NCBI RefSeq assembly: GCF_000144695.1
Contig: NC_014378.1
Span: forward strand, 376,781 to 408,780
From: Acetohalobium arabaticum DSM 5501
GTDB lineage: Bacteria; Bacillota; Halanaerobiia; Halobacteroidales; Acetohalobiaceae
Direction: 5' to 3'
Length of the DNA stretch: 32,000 nucleotides
The notes beneath the pieces are model-generated. The model made no database searches. It had not been told where the DNA came from and saw only the letters and a program-made list of their open reading frames with translations. Numbering within the stretch: the stretch's first letter is position 1; the number at the start of each line of letters is the position of its first letter. A program made the translations under genes and the position numbers. Positions 2,936-22,368 of this stretch are shown one piece after another.

Positions 2936-3529
2936 ATGATCAAAGTTGATGCTCGAGGTTTAGACTGTCCTCAGCCAGTAATTAAGACAAAAGATGCTAT
3001 AAACAAAGGAGAAAAGGTTGAAACATTGGTCGATAATAAAACAGCCTGTAAAAATTTACAGAAGTTAGGCGATAAGATGAATTGTAATGTTGAAGTGATG
3101 GAAGTGGATGATGATTTTCAATTAACCTTTATACCGGAAGAAGAACTTGTTACCTCCTCGACTACTTCCGAAGAATTAGATGATACCGGTGATAGTGGAG
3201 GGAAGGTTTACTTTATCAGCTCTGATGTAGTAGGAGAAGGAGACCAAGAATTAGGTGAAATCTTAATTAAAGGCTTTACTTATACGTTAACTGAAATAGC
3301 TCCTAAACCTAAAGCAATAGTCTTTATGAATGATGGAGTTAAGTTACCTACATTGAATGATGAAGTAATAGATAATCTGAAAATATTAGAGGAAGCAGGG
3401 ATAGAGATTATATCCTGTGGAACCTGTCTGGATTATTATGGTTTAAAGGATGAATTAGCTGTAGGAGAAGTTTCAAATATGTATACTATTGTTGAAACGT
3501 TAAATAATAATCCAGTAGTAACAGTCTAA
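2936..3529 (+). CDS. yedF: Selenium metabolism protein YedF (TusA/SirA-like N-domain plus DsrE-like C-domain)
   Basis: N-terminal ARGLDCPQPVIKTK (CPxP motif of TusA-like sulfur/selenium carriers), a C-terminal DsrE-like domain ending in CGTCLDYYG, and a position directly upstream of selD. Confidence 0.8.
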   Translation: MIKVDARGLDCPQPVIKTKDAINKGEKVETLVDNKTACKNLQKLGDKMNCNVEVMEVDDDFQLTFIPEEELVTSSTTSEELDDTGDSGGKVYFISSDVVGEGDQELGEILIKGFTYTLTEIAPKPKAIVFMNDGVKLPTLNDEVIDNLKILEEAGIEIISCGTCLDYYGLKDELAVGEVSNMYTIVETLNNNPVVTV

Positions 3530-4013: not shown

Positions 4014-5048
4014 ATGAATGATAAAAATACATGTCAGCTAACAGCTGGAGGCGGTTGAGCAGCTAAAATAGGTCCTGAGACCTTATCGCAAGTTTTGCGA
4101 TCAGTTCCTACTGTTACTAATGAACGGGAATTAGTTGGATTAAGTACTTCTGATGATGCTTCGGTAATTAAGTTAAATGAAAAGCAAGCTTTGATCCAAT
4201 CACTGGATTTTTTTACTCCAGTAGTCGAGGATCCCTATTTATTTGGTCAGATAGCGGCTGCCAATGCTTTAAGTGATATCTATGCTATGGGCGGTGAGCC
4301 GTTGAGTGCCATGAATATTGTTGGTTTTCCTCCTGAACTCGATACTGAGATTTTAGAAAAGATTCTCCAGGGAGGAGCAGATAAAGTAAAAGAAGCAGGG
4401 GCAATTTTAGCTGGCGGCCATACTATTGAGGATGAAGAGACTAAATATGGTCTTTCTGCCAGTGGCTTAGTGGCTCCAGCAGATATGGTATCAAATGCGG
4501 GAGCTGAGCCGGGAGATAAGCTGGTACTAACTAAACCGCTTGGAATCGGAATTGCTGTGACTGCTATTAACGGAGGTTTAAGTCCTGGAGGTGAAAATAG
4601 TCCGGCTATTCAGGAAATGTTAACTCTGAATAAAGATGCAGCCGAAGTTATGCAGAAAATAGGAGTTAATGCTGCTACTGATGTAACAGGTTTTGGTTTA
4701 TTAGGCCATCTTTGGGAGTTAGTATCGGCCAGTGGAGTACAGGCTGTAGTTAACTTTTCAACCATTCCATTACTGTCTGAAGTAATAGAATGGGCTGAGA
4801 TGGGCTTAGTACCTGGCGGTGCTTATAGTAATCAGGAGTATATTAATGAACATATAGACTTTACAGCTGGATTTGAAGAAGCGAAGCAGAATGTATTATT
4901 TGATCCTCAGACTTCCGGCGGGCTTTTAATTTCGGTTACTGCTGACAAGGCTGATAAATTAGAAATTGCTTTACAGAAGAAAGGAGTAACTTCTGCTATT
5001 ATTGGGCGGATTGAGTCTGGAGAAGCTGCAATTAAGGTGAAAGAATAA
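4014..5048 (+). CDS. selD: Selenide, water dikinase (selenophosphate synthetase), selenocysteine-containing form; TGA at 4056-4058 is read as Sec
   Basis: ATG at 4014 follows the RBS GAAGGGG and is in frame with track ORF 4095-5048 (81 nt upstream). It translates as MNDKNTCQLTAGGG-U-AAKIGPETLSQVL, which aligns with the E. coli SelD motif SHGAGCGCKISPKVL, placing Sec at the catalytic Cys17 position. The rest of the protein is a typical SelD (DFFTPVVEDPYLFGQIAAANALSDIYAMGG, TDVTGFGLLGH, DPQTSGGLL). Confidence 0.9.
4059..4101 (+). promoter_or_regulatory. Candidate SECIS region downstream of the selD UGA
   Basis: There are two hairpins after the UGA. The first is AGGUC-CUGA-GACCU (4070-4083) and can be extended with a bulged U. 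The second is AUCGCAA-GUU-UUGCGAU (4085-4101). Either lies within the usual distance of a bacterial SECIS apical loop from the UGA. Confidence 0.45.
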
Positions 5049-6393: not shown

Positions 6394-7695
6394 TTGAAGT
6401 TAGCTAAATATTTTATTCATAAACCTAATCAAATCCAACAAGTTGTATTAGGTTGTTTAGCCTATGCTAGTGCCAGATTATATAATATCGGCAATTATCA
6501 ACGTAAAAACTGGTCTAAAGATAGTGATGAAGATTATCCTGATTGGTATAAACAAAAAAAGCAATTAAAAGATAACTTTTGGTATAAAAACTTACCCTCC
6601 CAGACAGCACAGGAAACACTTAAAATTTTATCTGATAACTGGGATAGTTTTTATCAAAGTATGGAGGATTATCAAGATAATCCTGATAAATATAACGGCA
6701 ACCCTAATCCACCTAACTATAAATCTAAAGATAGTAAATTTAACTTCCGTTATCTTAATAATGGTTTTAAAATTATTGATGGTAAGTTAAGATTATCTAT
6801 CCCTAAACAATTAAAAAAGTATTTAAAAGAGGAATACTCTATTACTAACAAATTCTTATGGATAAGAGTGCCTAATGAGCTGTTATCCAGTAATAGAGAT
6901 ATCCTTAACTCAACTACTAGAATTGAGTTTAAACCTTTAAGTGATGATACTTATAAGGTAATCTTAACTTATAAAGTAGATACACCAACTATTAAAGAAG
7001 ATAACGGTAATTATTTAAGTATTGATCTAGGCATTAATAATTTAATGACCTGTTACAGCAATCAAAATCAGGAGAGCTTTATTATTGATGGCGGACAGTA
7101 TTTAGCTATTAATCGTTACTTCGACAAACAGATTAAACATTATCAATCTATTTTGAATGGTCAAGGTAAAAAGACTTCTAAACGTATCCAACAATTATAT
7201 AAGAAACGACGCAAGCAGCTGTTTCATTTAATCCATAGTGCTACTAAAAAAGTAGTTAATTACTGTATTGAAAATAATATATCTAGAGTAATCGTTGGTA
7301 ATATAAAAAATATTCGTGATGATGCTGATCTAGGTAAACAGACTAATCAAAAACTACATAAACTACCTTTTGATATTATCTATCACCAACTAGAGTATAA
7401 ACTTCATTTACAAGGGATTACCTTAATTAAGAAGAGTGAGAAATATACCAGCCAATGCAGCCCTTACAGTAAAAAAGTAACTAAGAAATATGGTAATAAA
7501 TCTAATCGTATTAAGCGAGGTTTATATGTAGATGAAGATAACAATCAAGCTTTTAATGCCGATAGTGTGGGTGCATTTAATATCTTACGCAAATATTTAC
7601 AGCAGCGACGTAAAGGTAAAGATATTACTCTGCAGGTTAAAGGCTTATCAAATCCAGTTATATTTAACTGGAATAATCATCAATTTGCAGCTTAA
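6394..7695 (+). CDS. tnpB: TnpB-like protein (IS605 OrfB family, RNA-guided nuclease family), atypical
   Basis: RBS AAGGAGGTGA and a TTG start. It has RuvC-I (LSIDLGINNLMTC), YTSQ.C, and RuvC-III (FNADSVGAFNI). The usual CxxC...CxxC zinc finger is absent. The usual hhhEDL RuvC-II motif reads VIVGNI. Confidence 0.85.
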   Translation: MKLAKYFIHKPNQIQQVVLGCLAYASARLYNIGNYQRKNWSKDSDEDYPDWYKQKKQLKDNFWYKNLPSQTAQETLKILSDNWDSFYQSMEDYQDNPDKYNGNPNPPNYKSKDSKFNFRYLNNGFKIIDGKLRLSIPKQLKKYLKEEYSITNKFLWIRVPNELLSSNRDILNSTTRIEFKPLSDDTYKVILTYKVDTPTIKEDNGNYLSIDLGINNLMTCYSNQNQESFIIDGGQYLAINRYFDKQIKHYQSILNGQGKKTSKRIQQLYKKRRKQLFHLIHSATKKVVNYCIENNISRVIVGNIKNIRDDADLGKQTNQKLHKLPFDIIYHQLEYKLHLQGITLIKKSEKYTSQCSPYSKKVTKKYGNKSNRIKRGLYVDEDNNQAFNADSVGAFNILRKYLQQRRKGKDITLQVKGLSNPVIFNWNNHQFAA

Positions 7696-8102: not shown

Positions 8103-8174
8103 GGAGGATTGATCGGAAAGATCACATAGGCTCTAACCCTATGCAGCCGGGTGTAACTCCCGGATCCTCCGCCA
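8103..8174 (+). tRNA. pylT: tRNA-Pyl (anticodon CUA, amber suppressor), CCA encoded
   Basis: The cloverleaf folds as follows:
- acceptor GGAGGAT (8103-8109) / ATCCTCC (8164-8170);
- one nt between the acceptor and D stems;
- D stem GATC/GATC with a 5-nt loop;
- 6-bp anticodon stem CATAGG/CCTATG;
- loop CUCUAAC with CUA at 8133-8135;
- 3-nt variable loop;
- T loop UGUAACU without T-psi-C;
- discriminator G.
It is close to the Methanosarcina and Desulfitobacterium tRNA-Pyl sequences recalled from the literature. Confidence 0.92.
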
Positions 8175-8189
8175 CTAATAATAATATGA

Positions 8190-8215
8190 TTAAATTCATA
8201 ATATTATGAATTTAA
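8190..8215. promoter_or_regulatory. 26-bp perfect palindrome between pylT and mttB; candidate operator or pylT 3' hairpin
   Basis: TTAAATTCATAAT|ATTATGAATTTAA is perfectly self-complementary. No strong T run follows it. Confidence 0.35.
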
Positions 8216-8361
8216 AAGTTTTAATTATATTTTTGCTGGAAAAGACTATAAAATAAAAACTATAGAGGAGGGATAATAAAATAAGATAGCTTTTAAATGG
8301 GATTAACAGAAAGAGTTTAAAGCGTAATGAACTAAAATTTTTAACAGAAAGGGTGAGATAT

Positions 8362-9822
8362 ATGACCATCAGAAATTCACGATCTTATTATCCCAACAAA
8401 ACTGGTTTTAGTGTTGATATGTTTACTGATGAAGAGTTAGAAGAGATTCATTTAGCTACACTAGAAATGTTATGGGATAATGGAATGCATGTTACAAATG
8501 AAGAAGCACTGGATATCTTTGCTGATGCTGGAGCTAAGGTTAATCGTAGCGAAGGGAAAGTTAGAATTCCTCCTTATATGGTAGAGGATGCTATTAAGTC
8601 CGCTCCACCTCAAATTTTAATGGCTGGACGTGACCCAGAAAATGATGTGGTAATTGGAGGTAGTCGAGTCAACTTTACGACCTTTGGAGCTGGAGTTAAG
8701 ATAGAAGACTTAGAAACAGGAGGATTAAGAGATACTCTTAAACAGGATGTAGCAGACACTGCTTTAGTAGCAGATTATCTTGATCAGATTGATATTTATT
8801 CTCATGCAGTAACAGGGGGGGACTCTCCTGATGCAAATATTGATCTGCATGATGCTGAGGCCTTCTTGAATAATACTACTAAGCATTGTCATCATATTGA
8901 TTTAACTTGTGGTGAAAATGCGAAAAAGTATTTTGAAATGGGTGCCGCTATTATGGGCGGTATGGATGAATTAAGAGAGAGACCTATTATTTCTGGTTTG
9001 GTCTGTCCACAGAGTCCTCTTGAATTGCATGGAGATGCTGCTCAGATTATTATTGAACATGCACGGGCTGGTATTCCGGTTAATGTATTATCCATGGCTA
9101 TGTCGGGAGCTACTTGTCCAGTATCTGTAGCAGGGACTTTGGTAGACCATAATGCCGAGGTGCTAACAGGAGTTATCCTAACTCAGCTAGTCAATAAAGG
9201 AGCACCAGTAATTTACGGTAGTTCTACCACGACTTTTGATTTACAGCATTCTACTGCGCCTGTAGGTGCTCCAGAACTAGGGATGTGTAATGCAGGAGTA
9301 GCTAAGTTGGCTCGTTATTACAACTTACCTAGTTATACTGCAGGTGGCTAGGCGGACAGCAAGTTATGTGACGTACAATCCGGATATGAAAAGACTATGA
9401 CTTATATGCTGCCAGCTATGGCAGGTGCTAACGTGCTTTACGGCTCAGGAATGATAGAGTTAGGAGTAACCTTCAGCTATACTCAGCTTATGATCGATAA
9501 TGAGATAGCTAGAATGGTAAGAAGAGTAATCAATGGTGTAGAAGTTAACGATGAAACTCTTGCTACTGATATAATGAAGGAGGTTGGCTGTGGAGGAAAC
9601 TTCCTTACTCAGCAGCATACATTAGACCTTATGGACCAGGAACAGTCTAGATCTGATCTCTTCGATAGAAAGATGAGAGAAGGTTGGGAGAATGACGGTT
9701 CTCAAGGTGCTGCTGAAAAAGCTACTGAAAGAGCAAAAACAATTCTTAATGACCATACTCCTGAGCCGTTAGATCAAGAGGTTCAAGATAAATTAAGTGA
9801 AATCGTAGAAAGTGTTAAGTAA
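8362..9822 (+). CDS. mttB: Trimethylamine:corrinoid methyltransferase, with the in-frame TAG (9349-9351) decoded as pyrrolysine
   Basis: Track ORFs 8353-9351 and 9397-9822 share one frame (1044 nt offset) and are separated only by the TAG. The joined protein is about 486-489 aa with ...YNLPSYTAGG-O-ADSKLCDVQSGYEK..., which matches the position of Pyl in MttB (about residue 334). ATG 8362 is preferred over GTG 8353 because of the RBS AAAGGGTGAG. Confidence 0.9.
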
Positions 9823-9982
9823 GACCGCGTTAGCAGATAGATAAACTTATATACATGTTAATTGAGGGAGATGCAGAGTCATTTCCCTTGATTAACATCC
9901 CTATATTTAAAATTTAAGTAAGTTATTCTATCCGGAAAGAAAGTTTGATTGGTTACCAATTATATTAAGGAGGTTTATAAAG

Positions 9983-10615
9983 ATGAGTCAATTTGACGAT
10001 ATTGCAGAAGCTGTAATTGATGGAGATGAGGAAAGAGTAGAAGAATTAACACAGAATCTGGTTGATGAAGGTGAAGAGCCTAGTGAGATTATTAAGGAAG
10101 GATTAGTTGCCGGTATGGATGTAGTGGGGGATAGATTTAAAGCAGAAGAGATGTTTGTTCCGCAGGTATTGATTGCGGCAGAAGCTATGGCGAAAGGAAT
10201 GGATATAGTAAAGCCTCTTTTAGCTGATGATGATACTAGTTCTGAAGGGCTTGTACTAATGGCTACAGTAGAGGATGACTTACATGATATAGGTAAGAAC
10301 TTAGCTTCTATGTTACTGGAAGGTTCTGGGTTTAATGTAATAGATTTAGGAACCGATATTCCGCCAGAAGAATTTGTAGAAGGAGTAAAAGAGCATGAAC
10401 CTGATATTGTAGGAATGTCTTCTTTATTAACTACTACAATGCCTAATATGGAGAGTACAATTGAAGCATTAGAGGAAGCCGGAATCAGAGATGAAGTTAA
10501 AATAATGGTAGGAGGCGCTCCAGTAAGTCAGGAGTTTGCTGATGAAATAGGAGCAGACGCATATGCTCCTGATGGAAGTACTGCTTCTGATTTGGCTAAA
10601 GAAATTATTGATTAA
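9983..10615 (+). CDS. mttC: Trimethylamine corrinoid protein (B12-binding)
   Basis: It has an N-terminal helical B12-binding-2 domain and a Rossmann-like B12 domain with the DxHxxG motif (EDDLHDIGKN), SSLLTTT and MVGGAP. It lies directly downstream of mttB. Confidence 0.85.
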   Translation: MSQFDDIAEAVIDGDEERVEELTQNLVDEGEEPSEIIKEGLVAGMDVVGDRFKAEEMFVPQVLIAAEAMAKGMDIVKPLLADDDTSSEGLVLMATVEDDLHDIGKNLASMLLEGSGFNVIDLGTDIPPEEFVEGVKEHEPDIVGMSSLLTTTMPNMESTIEALEEAGIRDEVKIMVGGAPVSQEFADEIGADAYAPDGSTASDLAKEIID

Positions 10616-10618
10616 TAG

Positions 10619-10648
10619 ATATAGAGGAGGAAATTTCCTCCTCTATAT
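10619..10648 (+). terminator. Perfect 30-nt palindrome (hairpin), possibly an attenuator or terminator between mttC and pylSn
   Basis: ATATAGAGGAGGAAA|TTTCCTCCTCTATAT. Only a weak T tract follows it, so terminator function is uncertain. Confidence 0.45.
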
Positions 10649-10678
10649 TTAATTAAGGCTAATGAGGGGGCGGAGAAG

Positions 10679-10963
10679 ATGGCTCAGTATACTTTTAGAA
10701 AAAAGCAGGATTTATTTTCTTTATTAAAAGAGATGAAACTGTGGCCTTCTCGTTCGGGACTTTTACATGGGATTAAATCGATAGATACTTTAGGCAATTA
10801 TGCACGCCTTACTTTATATTGTGGTCAAGAGATTACAGTAAAGAATTCTAAAAACAGTCGGGCAGCTCGCTGGCTGCGTAATACAATGATGATTGAACCC
10901 TGTACAGAATGTGAAGTGCCTGATTGGAAGATAGAGAAATATTCTAATACTACTTTTAAATAA
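10679..10963 (+). CDS. pylSn: Pyrrolysyl-tRNA synthetase, N-terminal tRNA-binding domain protein
   Basis: About 94 aa. LWPSRSGLLHGIK...NSKNSRAARWLRN...CTECEVPD matches the PylS N-domain pattern (LWMSRTGTLHKIK...NSRSCRTARAFRH...CKRCRVSD in Methanosarcina). A separate pylSn gene is typical of bacteria. Confidence 0.85.
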   Translation: MAQYTFRKKQDLFSLLKEMKLWPSRSGLLHGIKSIDTLGNYARLTLYCGQEITVKNSKNSRAARWLRNTMMIEPCTECEVPDWKIEKYSNTTFK

Positions 10964-10989
10964 ATTCAAGAGGGATGGAGGCCTGGATA

Positions 10990-11829
10990 ATGAAATTTAC
11001 TCAAGCTCAACAGCAGAGGATAATTGAACTGGATGCTGAAGGTAAATATAAAGGATATATTAAGGATAAGGAATTTGATTCTTCTAAAGAACGAGAGGAT
11101 GACTTTCAGAAAATAGAGGATGATTTAGTTAATAAGAATAAAAAAAGACTAGAAGAGTTACAAGGCCGTCATCAGCAGCCGGTATTAAGGAGAATGGAGT
11201 TTCGGTTAGTTGAATTACTCAAAGAGTCTGGATTTATGGAAGTAGTTACTCCTATAAAGTTAGCCAAAGGCCATTTAGAGAAGATGGGAATTGATGAAGA
11301 ACATTCCCTCTGGAAACAGGTATACTGGCTTGAGGAAGATAACTACTGTCTGCGTCCGATGTTGGCTCCTAATTTATATTATTTGCTGGGTTATTTTGAA
11401 AATTCATTATCTAAGCCTATTAAAATATTTGAAGTAGGTCCCTGTTTTCGCAGAGAATCCCGAGGAAGTAAACATCTTTCCGAGTTTACAATGATGAATC
11501 TAGTAGAATTAGGACCTAAGGGAGATCCCACTGAGAGATTGAAATCATTAATTGCAGAATTAATGGATTATCTAGAACTTGAATATGAGTTAGAGGAAGA
11601 GGAATCGGTGGTTTATGGTAAAACTATCGATGTAGTAGTAAACGGTATAGAAGTTGGTTCTGGGGCTGTAGGTCCCCATTTGTTGGATGAAGCCTGGAAT
11701 ATCAGTGATTCCTGGGTAGGAGTTGGTTTCGGTTTAGAGAGATTGATAATCTGTAAAGAAGAATTTGAAAGCATCAAACGGGTTGGCCGGAGTCTTATCT
11801 ATCAGGATGGAGTAAGGTTGAATATTTAA
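10990..11829 (+). CDS. pylSc: Pyrrolysyl-tRNA synthetase, catalytic (class II) domain protein
   Basis: LRPMLAPNLYYLLGY....PIKIFEVGPCFRRESRGSKHLSEFTMMNLVELG is the PylS catalytic core signature. ATG 10990 is preferred (RBS AGAGGGATGGAGG). The alternative in-frame ATG is at 10975. Confidence 0.9.
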   Translation: MKFTQAQQQRIIELDAEGKYKGYIKDKEFDSSKEREDDFQKIEDDLVNKNKKRLEELQGRHQQPVLRRMEFRLVELLKESGFMEVVTPIKLAKGHLEKMGIDEEHSLWKQVYWLEEDNYCLRPMLAPNLYYLLGYFENSLSKPIKIFEVGPCFRRESRGSKHLSEFTMMNLVELGPKGDPTERLKSLIAELMDYLELEYELEEEESVVYGKTIDVVVNGIEVGSGAVGPHLLDEAWNISDSWVGVGFGLERLIICKEEFESIKRVGRSLIYQDGVRLNI

Positions 11830-11846
11830 AAATAAGGGTGGGAATA

Positions 11847-12953
11847 ATGAAAGAAAATAATTTAGATTTACAGGTGATACTGGATAAAGCTAAAAGCGGT
11901 AGGGAACTTAAATTTGAAGAAATATATAAAATTCTAACTTTAAAAGATAAAGAGTCCCTAGAGCAGGTATTTAAAGCAGCTAGAGAGATTCGAAGAAATT
12001 ATTTTGGAAATAAAATATTTTTATATGGGTTTGTCTACTTTTCTACTTATTGTAGAAATGAGTGTACCTTCTGTTATTATCGAAAGTCAAATAATAAGAG
12101 CCCTCGCTATAGAAAAACTCCGGATGAAATTCTTCAGATTGCAGAATCTTTGATGAATTCCGGAGTTCATTTAATTGATTTAACTATGGGAGAAGATCCA
12201 GCTATATATACTGAAAATAATTTTGGAAGTTTAAAAGAAATAGCCAGCCAAATTAAAGATCAAACCAATCTGCCAGTGATGGTATCTCCAGGAGTTTTAC
12301 CGGAAGATGAGGTATTAGAGTTGGAAGATTGTGGAGCTGACTGGTATGCCTGTTATCAGGAAACTCATAATAGAGATCTGTTTACTGAATTAAGAGTAAA
12401 CCAAAGTTATGATCGGAGAATGGAAACAAAGATGTTGGCGAAGAATAATGGATTATTAATTGAAGATGGAATTCTGCTAGGAGTAGGAGAGGAGATCGAA
12501 GACCGTGTTAATTCAATTTTGACGATGAAGGAGTTAGGGGTACATCAGGGCAGAGTAATGAGTTTTGTAGCTCAGGAAGGTACTCCTATGGCTGATTCTA
12601 ATACTCCACCTCGAAGAGAAGAACTGTTGGTAATTGCTGCTTTAAGGTTAGTTTTACAGGATAGATTAATTCCTGCTTCTTTAGATGTAGATGGAATTGA
12701 GGGTTTAGAGGATAGATTGAATGCTGGAGCCAATGTTGTAACATCTTTAATTCCTCCTAGTTCTGGTTTAGCCGGTGTTTCTAATTCAACGCTGGATATT
12801 GATGAAGGCCATCGAACCGTAAATGGAGTACAGAAGGTGATTGAAGAGTTAGATTTGAAAATTGCTGCTCCAGAGTTGTATAAAGAATGGGTTGAGACTA
12901 AAAAGATGAATTTGAATCATTTAGACAGAGATGTGATTGTCTGCAGAGGATAG
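11847..12953 (+). CDS. pylB: Methylornithine synthase (radical SAM lysine mutase)
   Basis: Radical SAM CxxxCxxC motif (CRNECTFCYY), BioB-like architecture, and a position after pylS. ATG 11847 is preferred (RBS AAGGGTGGG). The alternative start is GTG 11838. TAG stop at 12951-12953. Confidence 0.9.
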   Translation: MKENNLDLQVILDKAKSGRELKFEEIYKILTLKDKESLEQVFKAAREIRRNYFGNKIFLYGFVYFSTYCRNECTFCYYRKSNNKSPRYRKTPDEILQIAESLMNSGVHLIDLTMGEDPAIYTENNFGSLKEIASQIKDQTNLPVMVSPGVLPEDEVLELEDCGADWYACYQETHNRDLFTELRVNQSYDRRMETKMLAKNNGLLIEDGILLGVGEEIEDRVNSILTMKELGVHQGRVMSFVAQEGTPMADSNTPPRREELLVIAALRLVLQDRLIPASLDVDGIEGLEDRLNAGANVVTSLIPPSSGLAGVSNSTLDIDEGHRTVNGVQKVIEELDLKIAAPELYKEWVETKKMNLNHLDRDVIVCRG

Positions 12954-12969
12954 TATGGAGGAGATAGGA

Positions 12970-14934
12970 ATGAATATTATTTTGGGCATAGATGCTGGAG
13001 GTACTTATACGGATTCTGTTCTCTATGATAGAGGAAATCAAGAATTAATTGATAAGAATAAGGCACTTACTACTTATTATAATTTAACTGAAGGAATTAA
13101 TAATACTATTACTGGATTAAAAGAAGAATGGTTTGATACAGTAGAGTTAGTAACTTTATCTACAACTCTGGCTACTAATGCTATTGTAGAGGGGAGGGGT
13201 GGAAGAGTAGGACTACTTCTGTTGGGATATGACCAGCAGCTTATGGAGCAGTTTACATTGGATGAAGAGATTCCTGGTAAAAAAAGAGAGATTATTAAGG
13301 GCAGATTTAACACTAGAGGAGAAAAAATTGAAAGTTTAGATGAAGAGGAAATAGAAAAGATAATCAAAAAGTGGCAGGGAAGTATAGATGCAGTGGCCAT
13401 TTCTGGATATATGAGTCCCCGCAATCCAGCCCATGAATTAAAGGCTAAAGGGATACTGGCTGAAATGACAGACCTGCCAGTAGTCTGCGGCCATGAATTA
13501 ACTAATAAATTAAATTCTATTCAACGGGCAACTACAGTAGCCTTAAATGCCAGCTTGATTCCTATGATCAAAGAATTGAATCAAAAAGTAAAAGAGGTTC
13601 TGCAGGTTAATGGAATTGAAGCACCAGTGATGATGGTGAAAGGAGACGGTTCATTAGTAAGCAGCCAGGCAGTTATAGATAAGCCTATAGAGACTGTATT
13701 ATCGGGACCAGCAGCCAGTACAATTGGTGCTAAGCATCTGGGGGAGGTAAATGAAGGAGTAATTGTAGATATTGGTGGTACTACTACTGATATTTCTGTA
13801 ATTAAGGATGGTTATCCTGATTTAAATTCCGATGGAGCAGTAGTAGGCGGCTGGTTAAGTAGTATAGAAGCAATTAAATTTAAAACTATCGGCTTAGGTG
13901 GAGACAGCAGAATCTATTTTAATCAGGATGGAGAATTAAAGATTGGTCCTAAAAGGGTAATTCCTTATTCGGCAGCTGCTGTAGAGCATAGGGAAGTTTT
14001 AACTGATTTACATAGAATGAGCGAAGAAAAAGTAAGCGGAGCAAGAAGAGAATTTTTGACTTTAAATAGAGCTGGGGTAGATATCGAATTCAATAAGCAG
14101 GAAGAGCAGATAATAAATGTATTAGAAACTGGTCCTAAATCAATAGCTCAGATAGTAGAAAGCATTGGTCTGGTTAGCCATAGAATTTTAGATTTAGAGC
14201 GGCTAGAAAGACTTGGAGTGATTAAAAGAATTGGTCTGACTCCAACGGATGTCTTACATGTGTTAGGGGAGTATACTATCTGGGAGGAGGAAGCAGCAGA
14301 ATTAGGACTTGAATTACTGATGAAGAGAATGAAAAGTGATAAGTTGACTTTAGCAGAGAAGTTAAAAGAAAGAGTAATCAATAAAGAAGCTAAAGAGATT
14401 ATTGCTTATTTGATCAGCCAGGATTATGAAGATTATAATCAGAACAGATGTGGATTATGTGAAAGATTAATAGAGTCCTGTTTAACTGAAGAAACCAAGA
14501 ATTTTTTATTGGATTTTAAGTCCCAGTTACCAATTGTAGCCTTGGGAGCTCCAGCCGAAGCTTATATGTCTAATTTGGATGATTATTTGGAGACAGATAT
14601 TATAGTGCCTGAAAATTATGAAGTAGCCAATGCTGTTGGTACTGCTGTAGGTAGAATCCTGATTAAACAAGAAGTGGAGATTAAGGTGAGAGGAAATGAT
14701 TATATTGTTCATGCGCCAGGCAGAAAGAAAGAATTTATTGATTTAGAGGAAGCAGTTGAGTGGGCTAAACAGAAAGGAAAGAAAGCAGCTGTTAAAGAAG
14801 CTAAGACTGCTGGAGCTAAAAGTATTGAAGTAGAAATAGAGGTAGAAAGAAGAAAAGCAGATATTAGTGCTCAAGGATCTAAAATGTTATTAGGTATTGG
14901 AGTAAAGATTATTGTTACCGGATTACCATTTTAG
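12970..14934 (+). CDS. Hydantoinase/oxoprolinase-family (HyuA-like, ASKHA ATPase) protein embedded in the pyl operon
   Basis: It has the N-terminal ILGIDAGGTYTDSVLYD...STTLATNAIVEGRG (hydantoinase A N-domain pattern) and GPAASTIGAKHLG....IVDIGGTTTDISVIKDG...IGLGGDS (hydantoinase_A pattern). ATG 12970 is preferred (RBS GGAGGAG). The alternatives are TTG 12937 and ATG 12955, both in the same frame as 12970; only the 12937 start overlaps pylB. TAG stop. Confidence 0.8.
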   Translation: MNIILGIDAGGTYTDSVLYDRGNQELIDKNKALTTYYNLTEGINNTITGLKEEWFDTVELVTLSTTLATNAIVEGRGGRVGLLLLGYDQQLMEQFTLDEEIPGKKREIIKGRFNTRGEKIESLDEEEIEKIIKKWQGSIDAVAISGYMSPRNPAHELKAKGILAEMTDLPVVCGHELTNKLNSIQRATTVALNASLIPMIKELNQKVKEVLQVNGIEAPVMMVKGDGSLVSSQAVIDKPIETVLSGPAASTIGAKHLGEVNEGVIVDIGGTTTDISVIKDGYPDLNSDGAVVGGWLSSIEAIKFKTIGLGGDSRIYFNQDGELKIGPKRVIPYSAAAVEHREVLTDLHRMSEEKVSGARREFLTLNRAGVDIEFNKQEEQIINVLETGPKSIAQIVESIGLVSHRILDLERLERLGVIKRIGLTPTDVLHVLGEYTIWEEEAAELGLELLMKRMKSDKLTLAEKLKERVINKEAKEIIAYLISQDYEDYNQNRCGLCERLIESCLTEETKNFLLDFKSQLPIVALGAPAEAYMSNLDDYLETDIIVPENYEVANAVGTAVGRILIKQEVEIKVRGNDYIVHAPGRKKEFIDLEEAVEWAKQKGKKAAVKEAKTAGAKSIEVEIEVERRKADISAQGSKMLLGIGVKIIVTGLPF

Positions 14935-14972
14935 ATTAAATATTGATCTAAAGTATATAGGGGGCGAATTAA

Positions 14973-16145
14973 GTGCGAAGAATTGCTATAATAGGTGGGG
15001 GATTACAGGGAATTGAAGTTACTTATCTGGCACAGAAGGCCGGATATAAAGTGCTGTTAATCGATAAAAGAAGGGATGTTCCGGCCTTTAATTTGGCAGA
15101 TGAGACTATAATCTGTGATATAATGAAAGAAAAGGAGAAGTTTAAGGAGAGTTTAGATGGTGTAGATTTAATTCTGCCTACTACCGAGAATAATGCAGCT
15201 TTACAGACATTAAAGAGTATGGATTCTAAGATAGACATTCCTATTGTATTTGACTGGGCTGCCTATCAGATTACTAATTCTAAAGAGAAATCAAAGAAAT
15301 TATTCAGTGAATATGATATTCCTCAGGCTGATTTATGGCCTAAAGCAGACTTTCCTTTGATCATTAAACCTAGCTCTGCTAGCGGTAGTCAAGAGGTGCA
15401 TAGGGCAGAAAATAAGCAGGAATTGGATGAAGTATTAACTAATCTGAAAGCAGCAGAAAGTGATCTAATTATCGAAGAATATCTTCCAGGACCTTCCTAT
15501 TCTATCGAGGTAATTGGCTATCAGGATCAGATATTGCCTTTGGTAACTACTTATTTAGATTTTGATGTTGATTATGACTGTAGACAGGTGATTTCCACTG
15601 ATAATTTAGAATTCATTGATACAGAACTAAGGGAGAGATTAAATGAATTAAGCAGTAAGATTGCTAAAAAGATCGGGCTCAATGGGATTATGGATCTGGA
15701 AGTGATCAGAGGCGAGAATGATATAAAGGTATTAGAAATCGATGCCCGCTTTCCCAGCCAGACTCCGATTACAGTCTTCTGGGCTACTGGTTTAAATATG
15801 GTGGAACTGTTGGTTAAGCTCTATTTAGAGGAAGGAATAGAGCCTGAATCCAAAGATTCATTCTCGGAGAATAAATCAGTCATTTATGAACATATTAAGA
15901 TGCAGAATGAAGTTTTAGAGGTCTGTGGAGAACATATTATTTCTCGAAGTACAGATTTAAGGCTGGAGAGGGACTTCTTTGGAGCTGTTGAAGCGATAAC
16001 CAATTATGGTTTTAGAAAGCAAGAATGGGTAGCTACTTTAATTTTTACTGCCGATTCTTTGGTAGAAGCATTTAAACAGAGAGATCGAACTTTAAATAAA
16101 ATTAGTGAAATAAATTCGTTATCTAAAACTAAAGTAAAGAGGTGA
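14973..16145 (+). CDS. pylC: 3-methylornithine--L-lysine ligase (ATP-grasp)
   Basis: N-terminal IAIIGGGLQGIEVTYLAQKAGYKVLLIDK, ATP-grasp body (LIIKPSSASGSQ..., LEIDARFPSQTP), and a position between pylB and pylD. Confidence 0.88.
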   Translation: MRRIAIIGGGLQGIEVTYLAQKAGYKVLLIDKRRDVPAFNLADETIICDIMKEKEKFKESLDGVDLILPTTENNAALQTLKSMDSKIDIPIVFDWAAYQITNSKEKSKKLFSEYDIPQADLWPKADFPLIIKPSSASGSQEVHRAENKQELDEVLTNLKAAESDLIIEEYLPGPSYSIEVIGYQDQILPLVTTYLDFDVDYDCRQVISTDNLEFIDTELRERLNELSSKIAKKIGLNGIMDLEVIRGENDIKVLEIDARFPSQTPITVFWATGLNMVELLVKLYLEEGIEPESKDSFSENKSVIYEHIKMQNEVLEVCGEHIISRSTDLRLERDFFGAVEAITNYGFRKQEWVATLIFTADSLVEAFKQRDRTLNKISEINSLSKTKVKR

Positions 16146-16149
16146 TAAG

Positions 16150-16956
16150 ATGACTAGATTATTTACTGATCAGATAAGCCATATTCCAGAGACAATAGAC
16201 GAATATAACCAGGAATTGAAGGATAAGACCGGGTGTGGGCTAGTAGGCTTGGCCAATCATGCTTTAGGAACTGAGTATGAAACTGCTTTTTTGGCTCAAA
16301 AGAGAGCTGCTGTTGTCCCTGTTACCGTAGGTGAAGGGATTATTCAGGGATTCAGTAAATCAGTAGCAGCTATTTTAGAATATATGGGGTTTGAGATTTT
16401 GGTTACCAATAGTTCAGATGTAAAAGGAATTAAAGAAGCATATCAAAAGAAAGCAGATATTCTTTTGATGGCCGATGATGATGAATTTATAGCTTTGAAT
16501 CTGGAAGAGAATAAATATGTTGATAATAACTGGGCTACAGCAAGGGCTTATGTGAATGCTTTGGAATTAATGGTAGGCGGATTGAAAGATAGAACAGTAG
16601 TTGTACAGGGATTAGGCCCAATAGGGAGAGAGGCTGTTAGAGCCTTAATAGAGAAGGAAGCCCGGATAAAGGTCTATGATGTTGATGAGCAGAAGATGAT
16701 AAAATTAACAGAGGAGGTTGAATCTGTAGAGGCTGTAAAGAATCCGGAACAAGAATTAAAACATAATAAATTAATTCTAGAAGCAACTCCTGTTGATAAT
16801 ACTATACAAGAGGATTATATCGATCAAAAAACATATATTTCTGCTCCTGGAGTTCCCTTAGGTGTCTGCAAAACTGCTATAAGTAGTATTGAAGATAGAT
16901 TAATTCATGATCCGTTACAGTTGGGAGTAAGCTTGATGGCGGCTGGGGTTTTATAG
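16150..16956 (+). CDS. pylD: Pyrrolysine synthase (3-methylornithyl-N6-L-lysine dehydrogenase)
   Basis: VPVTVGEGIIQGFS, ILLMADDDEF, Rossmann VVVQGLGPIGREA, LEATP, APGVPLG and DPLQLG match the PylD pattern recalled from Methanosarcina PylD. TAG stop at 16954-16956. Confidence 0.85.
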   Translation: MTRLFTDQISHIPETIDEYNQELKDKTGCGLVGLANHALGTEYETAFLAQKRAAVVPVTVGEGIIQGFSKSVAAILEYMGFEILVTNSSDVKGIKEAYQKKADILLMADDDEFIALNLEENKYVDNNWATARAYVNALELMVGGLKDRTVVVQGLGPIGREAVRALIEKEARIKVYDVDEQKMIKLTEEVESVEAVKNPEQELKHNKLILEATPVDNTIQEDYIDQKTYISAPGVPLGVCKTAISSIEDRLIHDPLQLGVSLMAAGVL

Positions 16957-17820
16957 ATGTTCTATAAATTTGTTGAAGATTTCTGAGCGGTATTTATCTT
17001 TATGATAAATAATACTGAAGTTTCTTTTAAATTCAATTCCTGAGATATTTACTTTAGTTATTTTTCCTTTTTTTCTTTCTTCTTTGGTTGAGATTTCAGG
17101 TAAGATAGAGACTCCAATGTTGGCTGCTACAGCTTTTTTAATTGCTTCAATATTATTAAAAACATGAGTGATTTGACAAGATATATTAAAATTAGCCAAA
17201 ATATTTTCAATAACTTTTCTGGTACCGCTTCCCTCTTCCCGCATGATAAAGTCTTCTTCATTGATTTTTTCCGGGGAGAGGTTTTTCCAGTGGCTCCATT
17301 CATGTTTAGTAGAACATACCAATTGAAGCTGGTCTGTAAAGAACTTTTCAACCACAATATTATCAGAACTGATAGGTCCTTCTACTAATCCTAAATCGAT
17401 TTTGTTATCTAAGACCATCTGTTCTATAACACTGGTGTTATCAATTATAAAGGGTAGGTTAATATCTTTATATTTCTGCTGGAATTCTTCTATTATCTGG
17501 GGTAATAGATAAGTGCCTATAGTCATACTGCTTCCAATTCGCAGCTGTCCTTGGTTTAGATTGGATATATCCTCCATTGCATTTTTGGTTTCATTTACAA
17601 GGTTTAGAATCCGCTTGCTATAATTAAGAAGTATTTCACCAGGGTGAGTTAATTTTAATCTTCTGTTTAGCCGGTCAAATAACTTCAAATTTAATTTATC
17701 TTCTAAGGTAGAGATAGTTTGACTGATAGCAGGCTGACTTATGTATAATTTTTTAGCTGCAGCTGACATATTTTTAGTTTCGCAGACTGTAACAAATATT
17801 TTAAGCTCTCTTAAATTCAA
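16951..17820 (-). CDS. LysR-family transcriptional regulator
   Basis: N-terminal wHTH (LRELKIFVTVCETKNMSAAAKKLYISQPAISQTISTLEDKL) and a C-terminal LysR substrate-binding domain. It is convergent with pylD, and its TAA stop abuts the pylD stop. Confidence 0.85.
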   Translation of the reverse strand: MNLRELKIFVTVCETKNMSAAAKKLYISQPAISQTISTLEDKLNLKLFDRLNRRLKLTHPGEILLNYSKRILNLVNETKNAMEDISNLNQGQLRIGSSMTIGTYLLPQIIEEFQQKYKDINLPFIIDNTSVIEQMVLDNKIDLGLVEGPISSDNIVVEKFFTDQLQLVCSTKHEWSHWKNLSPEKINEEDFIMREEGSGTRKVIENILANFNISCQITHVFNNIEAIKKAVAANIGVSILPEISTKEERKKGKITKVNISGIEFKRNFSIIYHKDKYRSEIFNKFIEHL

Positions 17821-18008: not shown

Positions 18009-18097
18009 GCCGGAGTGGCGGAACTGGCAGACGCGTAGCGTTGAGGGCGCTATGGACAGTCTTGTCCGTGTGGGTTCAAATCCCACCTCCGGCACCA
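18009..18097 (+). tRNA. tRNA-Leu (anticodon GAG), class II with a long variable arm, CCA encoded
   Basis: Acceptor GCCGGAG/CTCCGGC; anticodon stem TAGCG/CGCTA with loop TTGAGGG (GAG at 18043-18045); long variable arm TGGACAGTCTTGTCCGT; T arm GTGGGTTCAAATCCCAC. Confidence 0.9.
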
Positions 18098-18439: not shown

Positions 18440-19858
18440 ATGAAAGTTAAAAACAAGTCATTTTCTGGAGGTTATACGTTTAATCTTGAGGGTAAGCCTC
18501 AGGATAGAGTTGTTGAATTAGAAACTCCTTCGAAAGTTGTTGTTCCTTTAAAGCAGGGGTTTGGCAGAGAAGTAGAACCCAATGTTGAGCCGGGTGAAGA
18601 AGTGAAAGCTGGTCAGATTATTGGTAGAGATGATGAATCTTTGTCTACTCCTATACAGGCAACGGTTAGCGGAACTGTAACAGAGATTACGGATTTACCT
18701 TCAAATAGGAGAGCAGTTGTCATTGAGTCAGATGGGACAGATGATTGGCAGCAATTAGAAGATCATTCATCTAATTGGAATAATCTATCAGCTGAAGAAA
18801 TTGAAGAATTACTTTATACTTCCGGAGTTACTTCCTTGGATAACCAGGGAATTCCGACTAGATATAAGAGTTCATCAATTTCTAAAGATGAAGTAGAGCA
18901 TATAATTATTGAAGGTACTGAGTCTAATCCTTATAACTTATCATTATCAGCTCTTTTAGAAGAAAATAAGTTATCACAGTTTGTTGATGGATTACAGATA
19001 CTCCACAAAGTCTTTCCACAGGCTAAAGTACATGTAACTATCAATGAAAATCGACAGCAATTAATTAAAGAATTAAGTGATTCTGCTGGAAATTATGATT
19101 GGATTCAGCTGTATAGTTCAGCTCCTAAGTATCCTCAAGGTAAGGACGAAATATTAGTTCCTACAATTTTAGGTGACGATTATAAAGTAAGAGCTTCTGT
19201 AGCAAGTTATGGTGTAATTGTCTTAAAAGTCCAGACTATTCTGCATATTTATGATGCTGTTGTAGAAGGAAAACCGTTGATAGAGCGGATGGTATCGCTG
19301 GCTGGAGAGGGCTGGCAGGAAAATATTCACCTTAAAGTTCGAATTGGTACTTCTATTGAAGCTATTATGAAAAATTACTCTGGTAGTGATAACCAGAGGC
19401 TTATTATTGGTAATTTATTAACAGATAAATCTATTGCAGATTACGAGATACCGGTTGACCGCACTTTTGATAATTTAAATGCGATCCCGGAACAGGAAGT
19501 AGGCGAGCCGTTTGCCTTTGCGCGTCCAGGAGCTCAAAAATATTCTTATTCAAATTCATTCTTATCTGCCTTACTTTCTGAGGTCTCTAGTAAATGTGAT
19601 ACTAATGTTCATGGAGAAGAAAGGGCTTGTATCTTCTGTGGTTACTGTGAAGATGCTTGTCCAGTTGATATAATTCCACATCTTGTTGAACGGTATACAG
19701 CTCAGAGCAGTGTCGATGAAGAGCTTATTAGATATGGTATTTTTGACTGTATAGAATGTAACTTGTGTACATTTGTTTGTCCATCTAAAAGACCTGTAGG
19801 TAAGCATATCAAGCAGGGAAAACAGTTCTTGCTCAATAAAGGATATGTAGTGAAGTAA
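18440..19858 (+). CDS. nqrA: Na+-translocating NADH:quinone oxidoreductase subunit A homolog with a C-terminal 2x[4Fe-4S] ferredoxin-type motif (RnfC-like feature)
   Basis: It has an N-terminal NqrA/RnfC barrel-sandwich region (AGQIIGRDDESLSTPIQATVSGTVTEI) and is the first gene of an ABCDEF-ordered operon. Two complete motifs are present: CIFCGYCEDACP and CIECNLCTFVCP. Confidence 0.75.
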   Translation: MKVKNKSFSGGYTFNLEGKPQDRVVELETPSKVVVPLKQGFGREVEPNVEPGEEVKAGQIIGRDDESLSTPIQATVSGTVTEITDLPSNRRAVVIESDGTDDWQQLEDHSSNWNNLSAEEIEELLYTSGVTSLDNQGIPTRYKSSSISKDEVEHIIIEGTESNPYNLSLSALLEENKLSQFVDGLQILHKVFPQAKVHVTINENRQQLIKELSDSAGNYDWIQLYSSAPKYPQGKDEILVPTILGDDYKVRASVASYGVIVLKVQTILHIYDAVVEGKPLIERMVSLAGEGWQENIHLKVRIGTSIEAIMKNYSGSDNQRLIIGNLLTDKSIADYEIPVDRTFDNLNAIPEQEVGEPFAFARPGAQKYSYSNSFLSALLSEVSSKCDTNVHGEERACIFCGYCEDACPVDIIPHLVERYTAQSSVDEELIRYGIFDCIECNLCTFVCPSKRPVGKHIKQGKQFLLNKGYVVK

Positions 19859-19913
19859 ATTTAAAGTATTTACAGGTTTAAAGTTGGATAGGATTAGGAG
19901 GGTGAATAAAAAA

Positions 19914-21005
19914 ATGAACGGACTTCGTAGTTTTTTTGATAATTTAAAGGAAAATGAATCACTACAGCCTGTAAAGCCCGTTATTGATGCAATGGCTGCA
20001 ATATTCTGTGGGCCAGATGAGGTTACAGCTTCTGCACCACATATTATGGATAATAATGATCTAAAAAGGTATATGTCAATGGTGATTTTAGCCTTGCTAC
20101 CTAGTACTTTTGCATCAATTTACTTTTACGGATGGCGTGCTGTATCAATTATTTTGGTATCTTATATAGTTGGTGGTTTAACGGAAGTACTCTTTGCTAT
20201 CATTAGAGGACATGAAATCGAAGAAGGATTTCTAGTAACAGGGCTTATCTTTCCTTTAGTTTTACCGCCGACGATTCCTTTATGGATGGTAGCAGTAGGG
20301 TCATTTTTTGGAGTTCTGTTTGGAAAAGAAGTTTTTGGCGGTACCGGACGGAATGTATTTAATCCAGCAATTGCAGGCCGTGTCTTTATTTCGATTGCCT
20401 TTCCAGTAGCTATGACTACTAAGTGGGCTAAACCTTTAGTTGGAGGTTTAGGAGGTTTTCTGAAGTATTCAGTTCCTGTTGATGCAATGTCGGCAGCAAC
20501 TCCGCTGGCAGTCTTTAAGACTAATGGTGAATTAGCATTCTCCACTTTTGAGCTTTTATTTGGTACAACTGGTGGTTCTATGGGAGAAACATTCCGGATT
20601 GGAATAATTATCGGTGGTCTATTCTTGATTGCTGCTAAAATAGTAGACTGGAGAATTCCAACGGCCTATTTAGGCTCTGTAGTAATCTTATCGGCTATTG
20701 GAAATCAGTTCTTACCAGGTACAGTTGCTCCACCATTATATCAATTGCTGACAGGAGGTCTCTTATTTGGTGCCTTCTTTATGGCAACTGATCCTGTAAC
20801 ATCGCCTTTTACAAAAGGCGGAACCTGGATATTTGGTATTTTTGCTGGATTTCTGACACTGATCTTTAGAAGCTTTAGTGGCTATGTTGAAGGTGTAATG
20901 TTTAGTATCTTACTGGCAAATTCAGTAACACCTTTGATCGATAGTATGGTTTTGAAGACGAAATTCAAACCAAAAGATGATGGGGTCGTTTACAATGAAA
21001 ACTAA
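19914..21005 (+). CDS. nqrB: NADH:quinone oxidoreductase subunit B (NqrB/RnfD family)
   Basis: Polytopic membrane protein with an NqrB-type N-terminal extension (..PVIDAMAAIFCGPDEVTASAPHIMDNNDLKRYM..), an FMN-attachment-like SAAT motif and FMATDPVTSP. ATG 19914 is preferred (RBS AGGAGGG). The track start is TTG 19884. Confidence 0.8.
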   Translation: MNGLRSFFDNLKENESLQPVKPVIDAMAAIFCGPDEVTASAPHIMDNNDLKRYMSMVILALLPSTFASIYFYGWRAVSIILVSYIVGGLTEVLFAIIRGHEIEEGFLVTGLIFPLVLPPTIPLWMVAVGSFFGVLFGKEVFGGTGRNVFNPAIAGRVFISIAFPVAMTTKWAKPLVGGLGGFLKYSVPVDAMSAATPLAVFKTNGELAFSTFELLFGTTGGSMGETFRIGIIIGGLFLIAAKIVDWRIPTAYLGSVVILSAIGNQFLPGTVAPPLYQLLTGGLLFGAFFMATDPVTSPFTKGGTWIFGIFAGFLTLIFRSFSGYVEGVMFSILLANSVTPLIDSMVLKTKFKPKDDGVVYNEN

Positions 21006-21621
21006 TACTAATTTAGAACAGGAAGTGCAAACTAAGGATATTCTGTTGGGTAAGGCTAAGATGATAATCTTTATGTTAATCTTGGGTTTGGTTGCAGCTG
21101 CTTTATTAGCAGGATTGGGTTCTTATACTAAACCTCTTGTGGAGAAGAATAAAGAATTAAGAACAATGCAGAAAGTTCTTGAATCTATTAATGTGGATTA
21201 TTCAAGTGATAATTTAACAAAGGTCTTTAAAGAAAAGGTCGAGGTTGTAAATGAAGGCGAATATAAATTTTACAAGACCAAAGAAGGCGAAGTTGCTTTT
21301 AAATTTGAAGGTGAAGGGATTTGGGCTCCAATTGTTGGTTTTGCAGCCCTTGACTCTGATATGGAAACCCTAGAAGGGATTTCAATAATGTCCCAGGGAG
21401 AGACTCCTGGTCTTGGCGGTCGAATTACAGAAGATTGGTTTCTTAATCAGTTTAAAGGCTTAAAACGCAATCCAAAAATTGTAGTTTTGAAAGCAAGTAA
21501 AACAGCTGATAATCCTAATGAAGTAGATGGGATTGCTGGAGCAACGTTGTCTGGTAAGGCTTTACAGAAGATTTTAAATAAGAATATTGAAGTGGCTTTG
21601 CAGAAACTGGAGGTGAACTAA
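20995..21621 (+). CDS. nqrC: NADH:quinone oxidoreductase subunit C (NqrC/RnfG family, FMN-binding)
   Basis: Single N-terminal TM helix and an FMN-binding domain with the flavinylation-type motif DGIAGATLSG. The start is ambiguous (ATG 20977 or 20995); either overlaps the nqrB stop. Confidence 0.75.
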   Translation: MKTNTNLEQEVQTKDILLGKAKMIIFMLILGLVAAALLAGLGSYTKPLVEKNKELRTMQKVLESINVDYSSDNLTKVFKEKVEVVNEGEYKFYKTKEGEVAFKFEGEGIWAPIVGFAALDSDMETLEGISIMSQGETPGLGGRITEDWFLNQFKGLKRNPKIVVLKASKTADNPNEVDGIAGATLSGKALQKILNKNIEVALQKLEVN

Positions 21622-21622
21622 T

Positions 21623-22315: not shown

Positions 22316-22368
22316 GAATGAATAGTTTGTGCTAAACAAATTAATAAAATATATGGAGGAGAAGTAAA

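Follow-up and report, generated by a model that had tools for sequence, protein, structure and literature searches.

The stretch of Acetohalobium arabaticum DSM 5501 DNA analyzed here, 32 kb in length and referred to as the window, almost certainly carries the pyl-mtt locus of this bacterium, that is, a complete bacterial-type pyrrolysine (Pyl) cassette together with the genes of the client trimethylamine (TMA) methyltransferase. The cluster is real, but it is already known from the literature of 2010–2012. Rother and Krzycki (2010; PMC2933860) reported that a homolog of TMA methyltransferase is encoded among the pyl genes of A. arabaticum, and that this organism forms an exception among Gram-positive bacteria in having pylSn ahead of pylSc. 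The published cluster and that of the window are the same locus; the embedded mttB gene and the position of pylSn before pylSc match, and no difference was found. According to papers citing Prat et al. (2012), as far as their accounts of that study go, pyl expression and Pyl in MttB are restricted to growth on TMA (PMC11467909, PMC8211752, and PMC3941956), the pyl genes being insufficiently expressed on pyruvate. No comment was found in the readable literature on the A. arabaticum cluster, a scope that leaves Prat et al. (2012) itself aside, on the gene located between pylB and pylC, which is termed gene X in the following. The uncharacterized protein family represented by this gene is the only lead worth keeping from the locus.

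The members of the block are as follows:

8103–8174, plus strand: pylT, tRNA-Pyl with anticodon CTA (CUA) (ARAGORN)
8365–9822, plus strand: mttB, encoding the trimethylamine:corrinoid methyltransferase, 486 codons with a single UAG in frame (TIGR02369; Pfam MTTB)
9349–9351, plus strand: in-frame UAG (TAG) of mttB, read as pyrrolysine (TIGR02369 profile position 314; 7xcm alignment)
9983–10615, plus strand: mttC, cognate corrinoid protein (TIGR02370, 219 bits, cutoff 215.3; Pfam B12-binding_2 and B12-binding)
10679–10963, plus strand: pylSn, tRNA-binding small subunit of the split pyrrolysyl-tRNA synthetase, PylRS (TIGR03912, 115.7 bits, cutoff 51.15)
10975–11829, plus strand: pylSc, catalytic subunit of the split PylRS (TIGR02367, 302.9 bits, cutoff 178.15)
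11838–12953, plus strand: pylB, radical-SAM methylornithine synthase, TAG stop (TIGR03910, 474 bits, cutoff 348.2)
12970–14934, plus strand: gene X, 654-amino acid HyuA-type (hydantoinase A) ASKHA ATPase, TAG stop, between pylB and pylC (Pfam Hydant_A_N and Hydantoinase_A)
14973–16145, plus strand: pylC, 3-methylornithine–lysine ligase (TIGR03909, 409 bits, cutoff 248.3)
16150–16956, plus strand: pylD, 3-methylornithyl-N6-lysine dehydrogenase, TAG stop (TIGR03911, 262.1 bits, cutoff 150.05; Pfam PylD_N)

Everything needed for the synthesis and insertion of Pyl, i.e., pylT, pylSn, pylSc, pylB, pylC, and pylD, is thus found in one block on one strand, where an earlier, sequence-only reading of the window had placed it. 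The gene order given there, pylT-mttB-mttC-pylSn-pylSc-pylB-X-pylC-pylD, is exact, including the location of mttB and mttC between the tRNA gene and the synthetase genes. The profile searches proposed by that reading were run, and each pyl protein as well as MttC scored above the curated NCBIfam cutoff, while TIGR02369 matched both halves of MttB (profile positions 1–313 with 475 bits and 315–467 with 232 bits). These scores are far beyond chance, and no evidence was found that contradicts the identities of the pyl and mtt genes. The products of X and pylD show 100% identity to A. arabaticum proteins. A look-up by identical sequence returned no record for PylSc. Folding of the pylT transcript gives a compact cloverleaf (−30.5 kcal/mol; z = −3.7 versus shuffles), and, in keeping with its atypical nature, this tRNA escapes the general Rfam tRNA model at gathering score.

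The mttB gene starts with ATG at position 8365, while mechanical lists of open reading frames (ORFs) begin at GTG 8353; counted from this GTG to the TAG, the truncated product comprises 332 amino acids, in agreement with the size of about 332 amino acids predicted before. Translated with the letter X at the TAG, MttB aligns end to end with MttB of Methanosarcina barkeri (PDB 7xcm; E = 2.4e-131), and the UAG falls on residue 334 of 7xcm_A, which is the pyrrolysine position of the archaeal enzyme. Detection of MttB exclusively as the 332-amino acid product had been named as an outcome that would speak against recoding. The literature has answered this point, since Pyl insertion in A. arabaticum MttB during growth on TMA is attributed to Prat et al. 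(2012) in the account given in PMC11467909. One further feature begins exactly at the UAG:

9349–9448, plus strand: match to PYLIS_3 (Rfam RF02510; 84 bits, gathering score 38)

The match most likely reflects conservation of the coding sequence rather than an RNA structure, because the fold of the 100-nt segment is no better than that of shuffled sequences (52 of 200 shuffles are equally stable) and because the model matches every Pyl-type mttB tested. No thermodynamic support was obtained for a genuine PYLIS structure (z = −0.59). According to the literature, no cis element is required for Pyl insertion.

For comparison of gene orders, one genome per GTDB species was scanned with a PylD alignment, and from the 135 confirmed PylD loci obtained, 80 were retained; the scan did not return the A. 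arabaticum genome itself. Gene order in the 80 pyl loci was determined by tblastn with the window proteins in combination with ARAGORN (locus numbers, such as L012, are those of our collection). In Natroniella acetigena (L012), the order pylT-mttB-mttC-pylSn-pylSc-pylB-pylC-pylD is that of the window minus X, with a pylB-pylC gap of 68 nt. In N. sulfidigena (L010/L013), pylT is followed by an 84-amino acid mttC remnant and by pylSn-pylSc-pylB-pylC-pylD, after which X, a UAG-containing mtbB gene, mtbC (encoding a corrinoid protein), and the gene of a pterin-binding methyltransferase (MT2) are located. The remnant (L010, 4083–4337) is a C-terminal piece of a corrinoid protein lying between pylT and pylSn, which points to the decay of an ancestral order pylT-mttB-mttC-pylSn as seen in the window. 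In a contig from a related Acetohalobium (L009), whose X protein is 88% identical, the succession pylB-X-pylC-pylD-LysR-Rnf is kept. The pylSn-first, mttBC-embedded order is, hence, a feature of this group of Halanaerobiales, shared with Natroniella, and not a one-off; the one trait peculiar to Acetohalobium is that X lies between pylB and pylC. As a side observation, both Natroniella loci have T-box leaders (125–127 bits) some kilobases upstream of pylT (L012, 1274–1508; L013, 1614–1848); they are unrelated to the window.

Other lineages have arranged the same components differently. Some metagenome-assembled genomes (MAGs) of Halanaerobiaceae show mttB-pylT-pylSn-pylSc-pylB-pylC-pylD, and several MAGs of Desulfobacterales show X-MT2-mttC-pylT-pylSc-pylC-pylD-pylSn. 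The cassette of the Desulfitobacterium/Desulfosporosinus type, pylT-pylSc-pylB-pylC-pylD-pylSn, resembles the window in the split PylRS, in the same five functions, and in methylamine methyltransferase genes nearby; it differs in that pylSn follows pylD with mttC-mttB downstream, whereas in the window pylSn precedes pylSc and mttB-mttC are inserted between pylT and pylSn. Desulfosporosinus, with the order pylT-pylSc-(one or two genes)-pylB-pylC-pylD-pylSn-mttC-mttB, carries choline-kinase/APH-like genes instead of X, and these are located between pylSc and pylB. Such genes of the choline/ethanolamine-kinase (APH) family, encoding proteins of ~318 amino acids and present in one or two copies, were seen at this position in L019, L023, L028, L039, L047, L049, L053, L056, L067, and L076; an assignment of the interrupting genes as RamA was considered and discarded in favor of the choline-kinase/APH-like one. 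In Desulfobacterales/deltaproteobacterial loci (L018, L030, L036, L037, L042, L057, L060, L070, L073, and L084), no pylB match was found between pylSc and pylC, where the gaps measure 41–167 nt, implying that pylB is encoded elsewhere or absent. The archaeal pylTSBCD cassette of Methanosarcina agrees with the window in its biochemistry and in the position of Pyl within MttB. As the sequence-only reading had held, the gene orders are unlike: archaea possess a single fused pylS gene in a cluster without interruption and are described in the literature as using Pyl constitutively, whereas the window has a split PylRS and interleaved client genes.

Gene X, left unnamed in the gene order proposed earlier, is present as described and could be identified as a HyuA-like ATPase tied to methyltransferase genes. 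The Pfam domains Hydant_A_N and Hydantoinase_A cover residues 16–340 of the protein. An AlphaFold model computed from 38 homologs (predicted local distance difference test score, 87.2; predicted template modeling score, 0.85) was compared by Foldseek, and full-length X matched HyuA-type subunits with template modeling scores of ~0.6 and E = 1e-24 to 4e-30, among them acetone carboxylase beta, N-methylhydantoinase (NMHase), the alpha and gamma subunits of acetophenone carboxylase (Apc), and caprolactamase alpha. The whole protein is one HyuA-type fold, and a reading of its C-terminal half as a novel domain was given up. The ASKHA motifs DxGGTYTD, DxGGTTTD, GLGGDS, and EVANAxGA show little or no variation, and the phosphate-binding motifs DxGGT(Y/T)TD are conserved. 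X scores far under every NCBIfam equivalog cutoff (e.g., 140 bits versus a cutoff of 1000). The similarity to GlmL/MutL is confined to the first ~55 residues (NF040745, 30.4 bits, cutoff 475), and with PF13941 31.3 bits were reached with no stretch passing on its own. With the HyuA-type ATPase subunits, X shares the full-length fold and the ASKHA motifs, while it differs in its genomic context of corrinoid methyl transfer. Furthermore, characterized HyuA-type ATPases all work with a HyuB-type partner, whereas X is without one; no Hydantoinase_B (HyuB) domain was detected by Pfam in any window ORF of at least 90 amino acids, nor was a HyuB partner found among the annotated neighbors of seven X homologs.

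Insight into the possible role of X comes from the genes that accompany its relatives. All five named relatives, from Selenihalanaerobacter, N. acetigena, Ca. Frackibacter, Ca. Formimonas DCMF, and Syntrophaceticus, are encoded directly beside MttB-superfamily genes and the gene of a 210-amino acid corrinoid protein; an MT2 gene is adjacent in four of the five, and was not seen at the N. acetigena locus. For the DCMF homolog, which is drawn as "HydA" with no function assigned, co-induction with glycine-betaine methyltransferase proteins, during growth on glycine betaine, has been reported (Holland et al., 2022; PMC9768040). Among the 80 pyl loci, X occurs within 10 kb of pylD in 13, all of which also carry methyltransferase genes; in N. 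sulfidigena it stands after pylD and before the UAG-containing mtbB-mtbC-MT2 genes. From metagenomes, 80 loci with X relatives were collected, 60 of them with at least 4 kb of flank, and in 35 of these 60, genes for MttB, corrinoid protein, MT2, or DUF1638 lie at most 3 kb from X. The C-terminal half of X alone retrieves 851 clusters (50% identity) at E ≤ 1e-10, so that the X family is far larger than the pyl system. Judged by these neighborhoods, X belongs to the methyl-transfer module and not to Pyl biosynthesis. A gene for DUF1638 (PF07796) was, in addition, observed to adjoin X relatives in L005 (11968–12612) and in 19 of the 80 metagenome loci (e.g., L098, L101, L123, and L138), in some of which it is the sole recognizable neighbor; a functional pairing of X with DUF1638 is possible.

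The position of X within pylBCD in the window and in the related Acetohalobium contig, as well as directly after pylD in N. sulfidigena, could also be explained if X were a fourth enzyme of Pyl biosynthesis or salvage, for instance an ATP-dependent one with the pyrroline ring or an intermediate derived from lysine as its substrate. Such a function would be in line with the characterized HyuA-family enzymes, which act on cyclic amides (oxoprolinase, caprolactamase, and NMHase are among the structural matches). It is, nevertheless, extremely unlikely. The cluster of N. acetigena has no X in the 68 nt separating pylB from pylC, the X homolog of this organism being located elsewhere by non-Pyl MttB genes; X is missing within 10 kb of pylD in 67 of the 80 pyl loci; its relatives have a much wider distribution than the pyl genes and are found with MttB systems of the non-Pyl type; and the HyuB partner subunit is absent from the window and the homolog loci examined. 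Moreover, pylTSBCD alone suffices for Pyl insertion in E. coli, according to the summary of that literature in PMC11467909 as far as it goes.

The reading preferred here is that X would be an accessory factor serving the corrinoid methyl-transfer module in an ATP-dependent manner, because it accompanies Pyl-MttB, Pyl-MtbB, and non-Pyl MttB, whose common partner is the corrinoid protein; this assignment is possible, though held tentatively. Even more cautiously, and with considerable doubt, it is proposed from the gene neighborhoods that X might stand for a large uncharacterized family of stand-alone HyuA-like ASKHA ATPases that serve as dedicated accessory factors of corrinoid-dependent methyl transfer with MttB-superfamily proteins and MtbB. 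Three observations weigh against an accessory function of this kind. About 40% of the metagenomic X relatives are without a recognized methyltransferase neighbor; X has no conserved cysteine cluster and, therefore, cannot itself be a redox activase; and X is not interchangeable with the RACE/RamA activases, given that both occur together in eight loci.

The last two points bear equally on the idea that X is a non-orthologous replacement for RamA/RACE, the reductive activase of corrinoid proteins. Both are ASKHA ATPases, and no RACE gene is present within the window, the only part of the A. arabaticum genome that the search for RACE covered. In addition, the legend to Figure 5 of PMC9768040 lists hydantoinase (HydA) and RACE, and two distinct cluster architectures are described. 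However, X has no Fe-S domain and no Pfam match to RACo or ferredoxin, and a true RamA (PF14574) from L032 does not match X. The CxxCx7C motif of the window protein, from which X had been considered as an Fe-S protein, is not conserved among the homologs, and that candidate was dropped. Since X is accompanied by a RamA/RACE gene in L046 and in seven metagenome loci, X is not simply a replacement for RACE, and the substitution is unlikely.

Regarding expression, the recoding machinery and the recoded gene had been said to look like a single expression unit. In favor of this, the genes share one strand, and the intergenic gaps from pylSn through pylD are only 4–38 nt, which fits co-transcription. 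The upstream gaps measure 190 nt (pylT-mttB) and 160 nt (mttB-mttC), and a pattern scan revealed two hairpins in this part:

9855–9898, plus strand: 19-bp hairpin 3′ of mttB, then CCCTATATTT
10624–10640, plus strand: 7-bp G+C-rich hairpin 3′ of mttC, then CTCTATATTT

Both hairpins are trailed by (C)CTATATTT. Two findings stand against a single operon. The hairpins following mttB and mttC are terminator-like, albeit with weak T-tracts, and no promoter could be assigned in the AT-rich pylT leader. Promoter-like sites, 46 in number, compare with 36.8 ± 5.9 in shuffles and are no commoner than in shuffled sequence. Because of the hairpins, a single transcript is not demonstrated by the sequence, which alone cannot decide the matter. 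It is possible that the hairpin after mttB is a partial terminator or an mRNA-stabilizing stem, and as leaky terminators or stabilizing stems both hairpins could lead to more MttB and MttC than Pyl enzymes. The identical short sequence (C)CTATATTTAA was observed at 9899–9908 and 10641–10650, after the two hairpins, and may constitute a shared processing or termination signal. At the translational level, pylB (12951–12953), X (14932–14934), and pylD (16954–16956) end in TAG, which makes them three of the five TAG-terminated genes among the ~30 genes of the window; should these stops be read by tRNA-Pyl on TMA, PylB, X, and PylD would gain 24, 3, and 9 residues, respectively, before a backup TGA.

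A regulatory gene had been noted to converge on the 3′ end of the block:

16951–17820, minus strand: LysR-family regulator, convergent with pylD (NF040786, 251.9 bits, cutoff 250)

Its position is as described, with an overlap of 6 nt with the pylD stop, whereas a conserved partnership with pyl clusters did not emerge, the gene being absent from all 80 other pyl loci by tblastn with the window proteins. That it encodes a TMA-responsive regulator of the pyl-mtt block would agree with the overlap and with the adjacency kept in the Acetohalobium relative L009, but this is very unlikely in view of its absence elsewhere and of further evidence. The protein matches, barely over the cutoff, NF040786, a model for selenium metabolism-associated LysR proteins, and its homologs of 63–68% identity in Halothermothrix orenii and Selenihalanaerobacter shriftii are encoded at loci that lack both pyl and mtt genes. 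As a rule, LysR regulators act on the neighbor transcribed divergently, here a tRNA-Leu gene and an Rnf/Nqr-like operon. From these neighborhoods, the LysR gene is probably not part of the pyl-mtt system. The divergent side was seen to comprise tRNA-Leu(GAG) at 18009–18097 and, just downstream of it, a six-gene membrane redox operon of the Rnf/Nqr type (18440–24045, plus strand), with RnfC-like, NQR2/RnfD, FMN_bind, and two Rnf-Nqr subunits and, as the last, an NqrF-like Fer2/FAD/NAD subunit.

On the upstream side, the AT-rich pylT leader is directly preceded by a transposon-related gene, which is a flank and not a functional part of the system:

6394–7695, plus strand: TnpB (IS605 OrfB/Cas12f-like; Pfam OrfB_IS605 and Cas12f1-like_TNB)

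TnpB fragments were likewise observed upstream of the N. sulfidigena pyl cluster (L010, 868–1089) and upstream of the X locus of N. acetigena (L003, 1–342); TnpB near these loci may be a coincidence or a trace of mobility. Further upstream, a TusA/DsrE-like gene is located at 2936–3529 and selD (AIRS/AIRS_C) at 4014–5048 on the plus strand. The latter contains an in-frame TGA at 4056–4058 within the motif TAGGG*AAKIGP, which looks like a selenocysteine codon, in which case the 32-kb window would hold both selenocysteine and Pyl recoding. With SelD, TusA/DsrE, and the "selenium-associated" LysR, the genes flanking the TnpB-pyl block are suggestive of a selenium locus. Insertion of the block as a mobile island into such a locus was considered but found no support, since the G+C content bears no island signature and the LysR homologs have variable, non-selenium neighbors; a plasmid origin was rejected, there being no megablast match in PLSDB.

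Summarizing, a scenario for the function of the locus can be drawn up, in which the steps of Pyl synthesis and insertion are taken from established knowledge of these families. [quoted passage not shown] PylSc and the tRNA-binding PylSn would charge tRNA-Pyl(CUA), and the charged tRNA would decode the single UAG of mttB, giving the 486-residue MttB rather than a truncated product of ~330 amino acids. MttB would then methylate the Co(I) corrinoid of MttC from TMA, and transfer of the methyl group to tetrahydrofolate would be accomplished by a methyltransferase encoded outside the window. Expression would be switched on by TMA, as is reported in the literature, so that UAG would stay a stop codon under other growth conditions. 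X would act, with expenditure of ATP, as an accessory factor on the corrinoid protein or on the methyltransferase complex; in the Acetohalobium lineage it would have come to sit between pylB and pylC and would, by this position, be co-expressed with both.

The locus is a classic example of a genetic code that is expanded under certain conditions only. UAG is the stop codon for about a fifth of the A. arabaticum genes, and Pyl decoding is on only when TMA is available. The remaining value of the cluster is comparative and consists in the gene order, which is common to the window and Natroniella and hence an arrangement of the Halobacteroidaceae, and in the pointer to an unstudied family of X ATPases. 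Members of this family accompany anaerobic methyltransferase systems for methylamines and quaternary amines, and these systems are of importance for the turnover of TMA and glycine betaine in sediments and guts. If the proposed accessory function is true, the corrinoid protein would be the target of the X family, which would activate it at the expense of ATP or load or repair its cofactor, next to or upstream of RACE/RamA, and the capture of X in the pyl operon of Acetohalobium would mean that the recoding machinery, the recoded enzyme, and a maintenance factor are induced together.

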